Shown in pieces: positions 59,349 to 64,000 of a stretch of DNA of 64,000 bases (position 1 is its first letter; each line of letters starts with the position of its first letter). The DNA lies in NCBI RefSeq assembly GCF_003334815.1, contig NZ_QOWO01000004.1, one strand, 5' to 3'. The notes beneath the pieces were generated by a model that had not been told where the DNA came from, did not search any database, and was given only the letters and a program-made list of their open reading frames with translations. The position numbers and the translations under genes are program-made. This DNA is from Escherichia coli. Lineage in GTDB: Bacteria > Pseudomonadota > Gammaproteobacteria > Enterobacterales > Enterobacteriaceae.

Positions 59349-62300
59349 ATGAGACACTTTATCTATCAGGACGAAAAATCACATAAATTCTGGGCAGTTG
59401 AGCAACAGGGAAACGAGTTGCATATCAGTTGGGGAAAAGTTGGCACCAAAGGGCAAAGCCAGATAAAAAGTTTTTCAGATGCTGCGGCAGCGGCAAAAGC
59501 GGAGCTTAAGCTGATTGCGGAGAAGGTGAAGAAGGGGTATGTGGAGCAAGCGAAGGATAATTCTTTGCAACCTTCCCAAACGGTAACGGGCTCTCTCAAG
59601 GTAGCGGACTTATCCACCATTATTCAGGAACAACCCTCTTTCGTAGCAGAAACCCGTGCGCCTGACAAAAATACAGATGCTGTTTTACCGTGGCTGGCGA
59701 AAGATATTGCTGTCGTTTTTCCGCCCGAAGTTGTACACACCACGTTAAGTCATCGCCGCTTTCCCGGAGTTCCTGTTCAGCAAGCAGACAAATTGACCCA
59801 ATTACGTCGCTTAGCCTGTAGTGTGTCGCAACGGGATAATAAAACAGCCACATTTGACTTCAGCGCCTGTTCTTTAGAATGGCAAAACACCGTCGCCCAG
59901 GCGATCAGTCGGATCGACGGCCTGAAAACAACACAGCTACCATCACCAGTAATGGCTGTACTCACGGCACTTGAAATGAAATGCACAAGATATAAAGTGC
60001 GTGAGGATGTTATGGATCAGATCGTCCAGGAAGGCGGTCTGGAATATGCTACTGATGTAATAATACACCTTCAACAGATTGATATTAAATGGGATTATGC
60101 GAATAATGTCATTATTATTCTGCCGTCTGGCATTGCACCTGACTACTTGGAGCAATATTCCAGATTTGAATTACGCCTACGTAAACATTTATCACTGGCG
60201 GAAGAGTCTCTCTGGCAAAAATGTGCACAAAAACTTATTGCCGCAATTCCACATATTCCAGAATGGCGGCAACCATTAATTGCTTTGTTATTACCCGAAA
60301 AACCAGAAATTGCACATGAAATTGCCCAGCGTCTACTGGGGCAAAAAAAATTACCCTCGCTTGAGTGGTTAAAAATAGTGGCGACTGATGAGCACATTCT
60401 TGCCTCATTAGAAAAATATCACGAGCCATATGCCATTTTTGATGATTACTATTGTGGTGCGATATGGTCAGCCACCGTATTACAGGAGCAAGGTGTTGCA
60501 GCCCTGCCCCGATTTGCTCCCTATGCCGCAAGTGACTACTGCGCCGATGTGTTGCGTCATATCAATCATCCGTTCGCATTAACACTGCTTATACGTGTAG
60601 CCGGGCATACTAAACGCTGTCACGATCGGATGACGAAAGCCATTGCTGCGTTCCCACATGCAGCAATGGCGGCACTGACGGAACTTCTTGGGCAAAAAGA
60701 AGAGAACAGTTGGCGCATTATGCTAATGACAATGCTTATCTCACAACCAGCACTGGCAGAACAGGTCATTCCCTGGCTCTCGACACCCGCAGTTGCCGTA
60801 CTGAAATCATGCCAGCAACAACTGACACAGCCCTCAAACCATGCCAGCGCCGATCTACTGCCAGCCGTAGTAGTCTCCCCTCCCTGGCTTTCGAAAAAGA
60901 AAAAATCGCCGATTCCGGTGCTGGATTTAGCGCCATTAGGCATTGAGCCAATCTGTTATCTGACAGAAGAAATCAGTAATCAACTTTTGGCGAAATATAT
61001 CTGGTATTCAAAACACATCACGGTTAGCCATGAAGAAAGTACTACCAACCTGTTGGCAAGGATGGGTTTTCAACGACGGATCGCTGGTACATATATTAAA
61101 GCTCCCGAAGCGGTAGTTGAGGCATGGCTAAATGAAGATTATTCAACCTTACTAAGTGAATTTAAGGTGTTTCATTCACCTACCGGGCATTATTGGCAGT
61201 TGGGGATTTTGACAACATTGCCGCTGGAGAAAGCAGTAAAAGCATGGAATGCCCTTACCCTATCTCCACATACCGATACCGAATACGCCATGTTACATTA
61301 TGGACTCAAAGGGTTACCTGGGTTAGTAAACTCACTTGCACGCTATCCACAAGAAGCCTTGCCCATCACGAATTACTTCGCAGCGAGTGAGCTGGCTCCT
61401 GCCGTCGCCCGTGCCTTCAACAAACTGAAAACGCTACGCGAAAACGCCCGTAGCTGGCTGTTGAAATACCCGGAACATGCCCTTACCGGCCTGCTGCCTG
61501 CGGCGCTCGGCAAAGCCGGTGAAGCACAGGATAACGCCCGCGCTGCCTTGCGTATGCTTACCGAAAACGGTCATCAGCCATTACTGCAAGAAATCGCCCG
61601 ACGTTATAACCAGCCGGAAGTAACCGATGCGGTGAACGCTCTGCTTGCGCTCGATCCCTTAGATAATCACCCGACAAAAATCCCCACTCTTCCGGCCTTT
61701 TATCAGCCATCGCTCTGGACGCGCCCGGTATTAAAAGCAAATGCCCAATCACTGCCAGATAGCGCCCTCCTCCACCTCGGTGAAATGCTCCGCTTCCCTC
61801 AGGAAGAGGCTCTGTATCCGGGATTATTGCAGGTGAAAGACGTCTGTTCCGCCGACTCACTGGCGGGATTTGCCTGGGATCTGTTTACCGCCAGGCAGAC
61901 CGCTGGCGCGCCGTCGAAAGAGAGTTGGGCGTTCACTGCGTTAGGCGTTCTCGGTAACGATGACACCGCCCGCAAACTGACGCCATTAATACGCGCCTGG
62001 CCTGGTGAATCCCAGCATAAACGCGCCACCGTTGGGTTGGATATTCTCGCTGCTATCGGTAGTGATATCGCCCTTATGCAGCTTAACGGCATCGCCCAGA
62101 AACTGAAATTCAAAGCATTACAGGAGCGGGCAAAAGAAAAAATTGCCGACATTGCCGAGAGCCGCGAACTCACGGTGGCGGAGCTTGAAGATCGGTTAGC
62201 ACCGGATCTCGGTCTGGATGATAACGGTTCGCTGCTGCTGGATTTTGGCCCACGGCAGTTCACCGTCAGCTTTGATGAAACCTTAAAACCGTTTGTGCGT

Positions 62301-63152: not shown

Positions 63153-64000
63153 ATGGACAAGGAATTACCGTGGCTGGCGGATAACGCCCAACTGGAACTG
63201 AAATATAAAAAAGGCAAAACACCACTCAGTCATCGCAAATGGCCGGGCGAACCGGTGCCTGTTATCACTGAAAGCATCATTCAGACACTGGGTGATAAAT
63301 TGCTACAAAAAGCTGAGAAGAAAAAAAACATTGTCTGGCGTTATGAAAATTTTTCACTGGAGTGGCAGTCCGCCATCACGCAGGCCATCAACTTGATCGT
63401 CGAACACAAACCCTCAATCCCGGCCCGGACAATGGCGGCGCTAGTCTGTATCGCGCAAAATGACAGCCAACAGTTGCTCGACGAAATCGTCCAACAAGAG
63501 GGACTGGAATATGCGACTGAGGTGGTGATTGCACGCCAGTTTATTACACGATGTTATGAGAGTGATCCTCTGCTAGTGACATTGCAGTATCAGGACGAGG
63601 ATTATGGCTATGGTTATCGCTCAGAAACCTATAACGAATTCGATCTCCGACTGCGTAAGCATCTCTCTCTGGCAGAGGAAAGCAGCTGGCAGCGTTGCGC
63701 CGACAAACTCATTGCCGCACTGCCAGGAATACCCAAAATCCGCCGTCCTTTTATTGCACTACTCCTCCCGGAAAAACCTGAAATAGCCAATGAACTCGCC
63801 AGTCTTGAAAGCTCCCGGTCAAGTCTCCATTCAAAGGAGTGGTTAAAGGTCATTGCTACTGATAATACGGCGGTAAAAAAACTCGAACGATACTGGGGCC
63901 TGGACGTATTTAGCGATCGCGAAGCCAGCTACATGTCACAAGAAAACCGCTTCGGCTACGCGGCCTGCGCCTCCCTTTTGCGCGAACAAGGACTGGCAGC
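63153..64000 (+). CDS. yehI: DUF4132 protein YehI, N-terminal part (runs off window end)
   Basis: Hand translation from ATG 63153 (MDKELPWLADNAQLELKYKKGK...) is open to the window end; shares blocks with YehH (QEGLEYATEVVIA, DLRLRKHLSLAEESSWQRCADKLIAALP, ALLLPEKPEIANE). Confidence 0.8.
   Translation, partial: MDKELPWLADNAQLELKYKKGKTPLSHRKWPGEPVPVITESIIQTLGDKLLQKAEKKKNIVWRYENFSLEWQSAITQAINLIVEHKPSIPARTMAALVCIAQNDSQQLLDEIVQQEGLEYATEVVIARQFITRCYESDPLLVTLQYQDEDYGYGYRSETYNEFDLRLRKHLSLAEESSWQRCADKLIAALPGIPKIRRPFIALLLPEKPEIANELASLESSRSSLHSKEWLKVIATDNTAVKKLERYWGLDVFSDREASYMSQENRFGYAACASLLREQGLA

Follow-up and report, generated by a model that had tools for sequence, protein, structure and literature searches.

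Near the end of the 64,000-nucleotide stretch of Escherichia coli DNA analysed here (henceforth the window), the gene yehH, also known as molR, encodes a large protein with a WGR and a DUF4132 domain and, together with its tandem paralogue yehI, opens what appears to be a conserved multi-gene module (Table 1). An earlier reading made from the letters of the window alone (henceforth the sequence-only reading) had described yehH as an uninterrupted open reading frame (ORF) of 1264 codons, and the ORF list and direct translation both confirm this. Positions 59000-64000 of the window are 100% identical to E. coli strain 52F4, in which YehH is WP_061352722.1 and the annotation runs from metG via a 'DUF4132 domain-containing protein', which is the yehH product, to yehI. 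By contrast, the K-12 annotation (NC_000913.3) lists yehF, a WGR fragment, and then a yehH pseudogene. At 97.7% identity to the window, the K-12 sequence carries a stop at codon 275 as well as an extra G, resulting in a +1 frameshift, near window position 62194, and the earlier claim that molR is disrupted in K-12 and intact here therefore holds.

Table 1. Features of the yehH-yehI region. Positions are those of the window.
Feature	Position	Strand	Description
metG intrinsic terminator	59218..59241	+	9-pair stem with 6 GC pairs, then T-run TTCTTTAT (terminator scan)
Core AATTCCTA of probable BglJ-RcsB box	59251..59258	+	Fits the central wwTTCykA of the motif; probable placement
LexA (SOS) box AACTGGATAAAATTACAGGG	59322..59341	+	CTG-N10-CAG; ends 8 bp before the yehH ATG
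yehH (molR) coding sequence	59349..63143	+	ATG start; 1264 aa; no internal stop
WGR domain, YehH aa 6-69	59364..59555	+	Pfam PF05406
Variable N-terminal alpha-solenoid half, YehH aa 75-670	59571..61358	+	Proposed specificity part
Conserved C-terminal half, YehH aa 675-1195	61371..62933	+	HEAT-like helices and alpha/beta domain; proposed core-docking part
DUF4132 domain, YehH aa 988-1173	62310..62867	+	Pfam PF13569
yehI, 5' part	63153..64000	+	First 282 of 1210 codons; continues past the window end

The WGR domain of YehH matches PF05406 (E 2.5e-18, model positions 9-77 of 79) and the WGR domain of a Bacteroides fragilis WGR-LRR protein (PDB 2ra8_A, E 1.4e-16), which in a PDB search is the sole solved structure related to YehH in sequence; together, the two matches confirm the N-terminal WGR-like fold proposed by the sequence-only reading. 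The signature residues are WGK in E. coli YehH compared to WGR/GRIG in the family consensus. The DUF4132 domain is matched in full (model positions 1-179 of 179, E 1.2e-50), and the match at residues 388-573 of a fragment beginning at aa 601 was converted to the YehH numbering in Table 1. A search for these two domains had been set beforehand as a possible refutation of the relationship, and both domains were found. In the remainder of YehH, no catalytic or cofactor-binding domain is recognised in Pfam, NCBIfam and PDB searches, and NCBIfam recovers the WGR part alone through a match to a Leptospira WGR-LRR family far below the cutoff. The predicted structure (predicted local distance difference test score, pLDDT, 88.6) consists of a HEAT-like alpha-solenoid and an alpha/beta domain. 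Foldseek searches with this model returned no significant match, and the likeness of YehH to karyopherins, CAND1, SF3B1, condensin CAP-G and Integrator subunits (all E > 1e-3) is architectural and not a sign of homology. YehH has the N-terminal WGR domain in common with PARP-type WGR proteins and with 2ra8; however, it lacks the PARP catalytic domain, and its WGR domain is fused to a solenoid and DUF4132. In PARP1-3, which are linked to DNA damage, the WGR domain is located beside a large regulatory scaffold, and the arrangement in YehH resembles this.

Nine nucleotides, GGAAAGAGC, separate the yehH stop codon (TAA, 63141-63143) from the yehI start codon (ATG, 63153), in agreement with the distance of 10 bp noted earlier. 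The sequence AAGGAAAG overlaps the stop codon and is located 5-12 nt upstream of this ATG, and yehI is probably translationally linked to yehH. The product is listed in RefSeq as 'DUF4132 domain-containing protein YehI'. When the full-length YehI of strain 52F4 is used, the alignment pairs YehH aa 110-1204 with YehI aa 2-1163 over ~1190 columns (38% identity). The sequence-only reading had pointed to shared blocks, LRLRKHLSLAEES.WQ.CA.KLIAA.P and IALLLPEKPEIA, in the N-terminal third of YehH; the blocks are real, but the paralogy is full-length. Thus, YehH is a WGR domain plus a linker plus a YehI-like body. The WGR domain is absent from YehI and from several homologues (Iodobacter, Bacillus), and among the best 150 representatives of the DUF4132 family, which comprises 5938 clusters at 50% identity (E up to 1e-3), it stands at the N-terminus in 97.

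In 52F4, yehI is followed by yehK, a gap of 1.2 kb, yehL (AAA+), yehM (DUF5682), yehP (vWA) and yehQ (SWIM); the MoxR-type AAA+ and vWA genes that the sequence-only reading expected downstream are yehL and yehP. The yehK-yehL gap (L001 24165-25403 in 52F4) measures 0.3 kb in K-12. In most E. coli, the region between yehI and yehL holds a tandem type I toxin-antitoxin system, z3289/z3290 (zor-orz), with antisense small RNAs, and MG1655 is without it (PMC2887945). Our survey of the module used one genome per species and covered 76 loci, annotated with hidden Markov models built from plasmid cassettes. A complete YehL-M-P-Q set adjoins the DUF4132 gene(s) at 53 loci, a partial set meets a contig or locus end at 6, and an orphan DUF4132 gene with at least 7 kb on both flanks is found at 6, all of them in Massilia; 11 loci were not assessable. 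Accordingly, the DUF4132 gene adjoins YehL/M/P/Q in 59 of 65 assessable loci. The survey loci span Gamma-, Beta- and Deltaproteobacteria and Actinomycetota, and the four-gene core is located downstream of the DUF4132 gene(s) at 51 loci and upstream at 7. Most Massilia species with an orphan DUF4132 gene also returned separate core-bearing loci.

All five gene types also occur together on four of the five plasmids inspected by tblastn, i.e. Iodobacter fluviatilis pl1, Sinorhizobium pBSY16_2, a Streptomyces linear plasmid and Bacillus mycoides p322, the hosts of which belong to the Beta- and Alphaproteobacteria, Actinomycetota and Bacillota. In pBSY16_2, the order is permuted with the DUF4132 gene between those for DUF5682 and vWA, and three gene orders are found overall. 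A gene set that is kept across phyla while its order varies is a standard signature of a functional unit. Thus, the neighbourhood analysis, in which YehL, YehM, YehP and YehQ are strongly co-conserved with the DUF4132 gene, supports the earlier inference that an uncharacterised multi-component module begins with yehH and yehI. The E. coli locus is at a fixed core position, from metG to yehR-btsSR, outside mobile islands, and its GC content gives no indication of recent acquisition.

While the core is invariant, the number of DUF4132 genes is not: K. oxytoca (Klebsiella) has three, E. coli two to three, and Erwinia and Serratia one, and across the survey 1 to at least 7 tandem genes accompany a single YehLMPQ core. 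The third E. coli copy is a WGR-DUF4132 gene located between metG and yehH in strains C9 and O157:H7. In C9, it encodes a protein of 1266 aa (L006 2891-6691) that is 44% identical to YehH. Of 5426 complete E. coli genomes, 1630 (~30%) have this third copy, in at least three allele classes; it recurs at loci L003, L004, L012-L015 and L019, is a pseudogene in O157:H7 DEC4E and is missing from the window strain. The largest arrays are those of Massilia with 4 to at least 7 visible WGR-DUF4132 paralogues (L042, L063, L066, L069, L070, L071, L082), and the loci that extend far enough downstream (L042, L069) show one YehLMPQ core after the array. Judged from these gene arrangements, a single core appears to serve one to many paralogues.

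The core looks functional, its proteins having retained the motifs expected of their families. In YehL, Walker A (GEPGTAKS) and Walker B (VRFEEITR) are kept in at least 90% of 31 cassettes, with the Walker B motif being FEE (E-E) instead of D-E. Its nearest solved relatives are the AAA domains of Midasin and MoxR 2r44, NCBIfam gives weak GvpN/MadB matches, and YehL has been assigned to its own subfamily of MoxR AAA+ proteins (PMC3893208). YehP has a complete MIDAS motif (DxSxS...T...D) in the form of DQSGSM, AFDT and SDFyEGG in at least 90% of 30 homologues, and the genes overlap or abut in each full cassette. YehQ has two SWIM signatures, CxCx5CxH (C68/C70/C76/H78 and C164/C166/C172/H174), in at least 90% of 24 homologues; on the single YehQ sequence, the Pfam SWIM matches are weak (E 0.017 and 0.21). 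YehM matches DUF5682 in Pfam (E 7e-96), and its structural model (pLDDT 88.3), which has a parallel beta-sheet core, matches TraB, ChaN, HopBA1, Ere-like proteins and PMT, i.e. the TIKI superfamily. YehM is, therefore, predicted to have a TIKI/TraB/ChaN-like hydrolase fold. In an alignment of 35 homologues, H11, E35, E83, E143, E176 and H202 of YehM are invariant.

The two halves of YehH have evolved differently. Column entropy over 122 homologues divides the protein into a variable, indel-rich region (aa 75-670) and a conserved region (aa 675-1195; 1.1-2.2 bits, occupancy ~1.0) with peak conservation at aa 835-1035. The C-terminal half is 43-45% identical to plasmid homologues from Streptomyces and Rhizobiaceae with 21 invariant residues, and between E. 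coli alleles its dN (nonsynonymous divergence) is 0.004-0.03. Invariant acidic positions of YehH include D906, D948, D1001 and E1254. The E. coli alleles form a mosaic with a breakpoint near codon 700, dN being 0.27-0.45 before and 0.01-0.03 after it. For instance, the AH21H025 allele has 88% aa identity with the window and its differences are concentrated in codons 500-700 (dN 0.43), while the orthologous copy in C9 has 75% aa identity with dS (synonymous divergence) saturated before codon 700 and dN of 0.01-0.03 after. Diverged E. coli alleles (75-88% aa identity) are intact 3.8-kb ORFs of 1253-1266 aa. In these comparisons, the variable half behaves as an exchangeable cassette among E. coli alleles. 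Taken over the whole gene, yehH has a dN/dS of 0.25-0.30 and yehI one of 0.22, compared to 0.004 for metG, 0.05 for yehL and 0.08 for yehQ; because the values for yehH and yehI are above those of their neighbours and below 1, they indicate purifying selection that is relaxed or heterogeneous.

The metG terminator stands between metG and the yehH promoter region, in which the LexA box AACTGGATAAAATTACAGGG is the top LexA site of the entire window (score 16.4 versus 12.4 for the runner-up). The weight matrix used is a rough one built from sixteen E. coli LexA boxes, which themselves score 15.7-26.3. The candidate TACTGGTAGCATCTGCATTC at 59302-59321 scores 5.0 and was rejected, with the box proper beginning at 59322. 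In E. whittamii, Escherichia sp. E1V33, K. oxytoca and K. grimontii, the same LexA box precedes the first WGR-DUF4132 gene by 26-27 bp. A review counts molR among the genes under LexA for which an SOS box is known (PMC6590174, citing Fernandez De Henestrosa 2000 and Courcelle 2001), and this listing together with the box suggests that yehH is damage-inducible via LexA. Associations with DNA damage also appear outside the Enterobacteriaceae. Depletion of the damage-response repressor DdrO strongly derepresses a DUF4132 protein and a WGR protein in Deinococcus; in Massilia, the L070 and L082 arrays start ~1 kb downstream of lexA, and an orphan DUF4132 copy (L084) is located just downstream of a divergent uvrA-ssb pair. 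The WGR domain itself has been termed a DNA-binding domain of MolR-like transcription factors (PMC7824862). A second regulatory input is known from K-12, where the molR promoter is activated by BglJ-RcsB through a functional box with its centre 65-68 bp upstream of the point where transcription starts (PMC3950696), and AATTCCTA in the window is probably the core of this box.

Based on the anatomy of YehH, the full-length paralogy, the co-conservation of the cassette, the LexA box, the integrity of the core motifs and the folds, all of which are documented here, we tentatively suggest a model in which YehH and YehI are alternative, damage-induced and DNA-sensing subunits (adaptors or sensors) of a conserved MoxR/vWA machine with five components for ATP-driven remodelling. 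We prefer this model while placing its probability somewhat below even. In this model, each adaptor would consist of an optional N-terminal WGR domain that binds nucleic acids, the fast-evolving solenoid (aa 75-670), which would confer target specificity, and the conserved half (aa 675-1195, including DUF4132), which may dock onto the invariant core. The core would comprise the YehL AAA+ ring, the vWA protein YehP, YehM with its putative hydrolase domain and helical repeats, and YehQ with its two SWIM zinc fingers. By analogy with the Rea1 MIDAS-UBL and CbbO-Rubisco interactions, the MIDAS of YehP may grip an acidic residue of a partner. In Escherichia and Klebsiella, LexA would repress the adaptor genes, and DNA damage or SOS-triggering foreign DNA would arm the machine. 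The WGR domain and solenoid would then recognise a DNA end or a DNA-associated target, and the AAA+/vWA core would remodel this target or pass it to the YehM hydrolase.

Several observations weigh against this model. It is gene neighbourhood that points to a physical contact between YehH/YehI and YehLMPQ, and in E. coli the array is split from yehL by yehK and 0.3-1.2 kb with the type I toxin-antitoxin insertion. Because YehI and several homologues have no WGR domain, DNA-end sensing cannot be universal. The catalytic residues of YehM are candidates drawn from sequence conservation. The LexA box is confined to Escherichia/Klebsiella, and in Erwinia, Serratia, Variovorax and Burkholderia no site ahead of the gene reaches a score of 13; LexA control as a universal property of the DUF4132 family is, therefore, rejected, and SOS control may be a lineage-specific overlay. 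Finally, the family is frequently pseudogenised (K-12, O157:H7 and, by transposon insertion, ST131), and a genome-reduced strain without the whole yeh locus is viable (genome-reduction announcement).

A bolder version, which we regard as doubtful, is that the yeh locus represents a widespread class of DNA-damage-triggered genome-surveillance systems in which tandem arrays of diversifying WGR-HEAT sensors, 1 to 8 at a locus, would connect via their conserved half with DUF4132 to a single MoxR AAA+/vWA/SWIM core that licenses a TIKI-like protease or esterase. Such a sensor-array immune or repair system would be ATP-gated and would have no characterised counterpart.

Alternatively, the module may provide immunity against phages or plasmids. 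In this scenario, the WGR-solenoid proteins would be sensors comparable to NLR- or Avs-like proteins, YehLMPQ would be an ATP-gated effector with a TIKI-like hydrolase, and the SOS response would serve as the infection cue. This is possible, albeit on the unlikely side. The polymorphic third paralogue, the arrays of at least 7 copies, the hypervariable sensor half with its cassette-like swapping, the patchy distribution, often on plasmids, and the frequent pseudogenisation all speak for this reading. In addition, the Iodobacter cassette adjoins a type I restriction-modification system and insertion sequence elements, and an orphan in Rhodococcus adjoins Wadjet, a GIY-YIG nuclease and a zeta toxin. 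However, YehH, YehI, YehK, YehL, YehM, YehP and YehQ match 0 of 5027 PADLOC models (PADLOC-DB v2, E up to 0.01), the E. coli locus has a fixed core position without a mobile island, almost every 100-codon window has a dN/dS well below 1, and there are 0 homologues in 50,697 phage genomes, i.e. no phage-borne copies or decoys were seen. Further vWA-MoxR conflict systems are on record as ternary systems (Kaur, Burroughs, Iyer, Aravind 2020, PMC7159879), and these have a MoxR+vWA core, diversifying partners and patchy horizontal spread in common with the yeh module. Nevertheless, WGR, SWIM, YehL, YehP, MolR and DUF4132 are absent from that paper, and the idea that conflict systems of this type already cover the yeh locus is, therefore, not supported. 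Effector-associated and VMAP domains were not detected in the yeh proteins, although no specific search was aimed at them.

In a second alternative, the relationship is inverted, and YehH and YehI are the clients of YehLMPQ, which would act as a dedicated chaperone that folds, assembles or activates these solenoid proteins, much as NorQ/NorD acts on nitric oxide reductase or CbbQ/CbbO on Rubisco, and YehH and YehI would then work by themselves. We consider this improbable, even though characterised pairs of the MoxR-vWA type target a specific client in their neighbourhood (PMC3893208 and, for NorQ/NorD, the abstract of the respective study). Co-conservation with the core is strict, the conserved half could serve as the chaperone-recognition element, and orphan DUF4132 genes occur in Massilia genomes that have separate core-bearing loci as well. 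On the other hand, a client relationship leaves unexplained why the variable half diversifies and why the genes multiply beside a single core, and it assigns no role to the conserved TIKI-like fold of YehM or the SWIM fingers of YehQ. Moreover, the body of YehH is without a recognisable catalytic or cofactor domain.

It has to be considered that the E. coli genes are functionless remnants drifting to loss and that the intact ORF in the window is incidental. Apart from K-12, the gene is broken by an internal stop and a frameshift in O157:H7, strain a7 retains a WGR fragment only, and yehP, yehK or yehI is frameshifted in some strains. In 184 isolates of ST131 sublineage L1a, the transposon TnMB1860 with its cargo of blaCTX-M-15, aac(3)-IIa, aac(6')-Ib-cr and blaOXA-1 disrupts DUF4132 genes, having inserted between metG, DUF4132 and yeh genes (PMC9334617). 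The dispensability of the locus in the genome-reduced strain and the weaker purifying selection than on neighbouring genes fit with decay. However, dN/dS over 1200 codons (0.22-0.30) is a long way from the neutral value, the 3.8-kb ORFs are intact even in strongly diverged alleles, the C-terminal half with its invariant residues is conserved across phyla, and the LexA box is kept across genera, making it very improbable that these genes are mere remnants. In K-12, deletion of molR1 (molR_1) combined with deletion of lepA gives synthetic slow growth despite the pseudogene status of molR there (PMC4245954); because metG lies ~140 bp upstream of the deletion, the cause may be a trivial one, namely altered metG expression or an effect on its terminator.

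Lastly, the historic view of MolR as a transcription factor for molybdate metabolism, which lives on in the database names 'molybdate metabolism regulator' and 'MolR family transcriptional regulator', in reports repeating them (PMC3950696, PMC4245954, PMC6590174) and in the description of WGR as the DNA-binding domain of such factors, is hardly credible, since domain searches find WGR and DUF4132 and no helix-turn-helix or other transcription-factor domain in this 1264-aa solenoid protein, the gene is a pseudogene in K-12, the background of laboratory genetics, its conserved partners are AAA+, vWA, TIKI-like and SWIM proteins rather than molybdenum genes, and the Deinococcus molybdenum genes did not shift together with the DUF4132 and WGR genes.

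Returning to the adaptor model, the yeh module is best regarded as an uncharacterised variation on the theme of MoxR/vWA remodellers. As in RavA-ViaA, NorQ-NorD, CbbQ-CbbO, CoxD-CoxE and Rea1/Midasin, a MoxR AAA+ protein is combined with a vWA protein with an intact MIDAS. However, the known pairs have two components and the yeh module five, the additions being the TIKI-like DUF5682 protein, the double-SWIM protein and 1 to at least 7 giant WGR-HEAT-DUF4132 proteins. Moreover, the surroundings of the module encode no metallo-enzyme client, Walker B of YehL is FEE, and in E. coli the adaptor genes are under LexA. Within the TIKI/TraB/PrgY/ChaN/erythromycin-esterase superfamily, YehM differs by ~500 further residues of helical repeats, and Pfam gives DUF5682 only, with no TraB or Ere match. 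The genes, the Pfam domains, the pseudogene status in K-12, the MoxR subfamily of YehL and the LexA-regulon membership are already on record, and no functional study of the yeh module was found in the searchable literature. The sequence-only reading was silent on the LexA box and SOS membership, the full-length paralogy, the third paralogue and the mosaic of variable and conserved parts.

Two side observations concern the chromosomal yeh genes. First, each chromosomal yeh protein matches near-perfectly a small PHROG without assigned function (phrog_20839, 36602, 28101, 36295, 30700, 33984, 31592, 29006). Because the C-terminal half of YehH has no homologue in the 50,697 phage genomes, we reject these matches as a sign of phage origin, and the PHROGs probably derive from host DNA in mis-delimited prophages. 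Second, the 52F4 annotation marks yehA, a fimbrial adhesin gene in the yehABCD chaperone-usher operon, as frameshifted (L001 7255-8290), corresponding to ~50254-51289 of the window assuming collinearity.

yehH has been listed in the LexA regulon for 25 years without a function, partly because the K-12 copy is broken. In the adaptor model, the intact yehH of the window would be one of several interchangeable, fast-diversifying subunits of a five-gene MoxR/vWA machine found in four phyla. With intact natural alleles at hand, the relation of yehH to the SOS response and the question of bacterial WGR domains become directly testable, and the mutational targets are now defined, i.e. Walker A, the MIDAS, the SWIM cysteines, the His/Glu residues of YehM, the WGR domain and the variable half. 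The locus adjacent to metG is, in addition, a recurrent insertion site of the blaCTX-M-15 transposon in ST131. Should the module turn out to be ordinary, the 'molybdate regulator' annotation would still be corrected and a multi-allelic locus of two to three copies beside metG documented. If, on the other hand, it is a damage-responsive remodeller or an immune system, this would provide a function for the YehL subfamily, bacterial WGR domains, DUF4132 and DUF5682.

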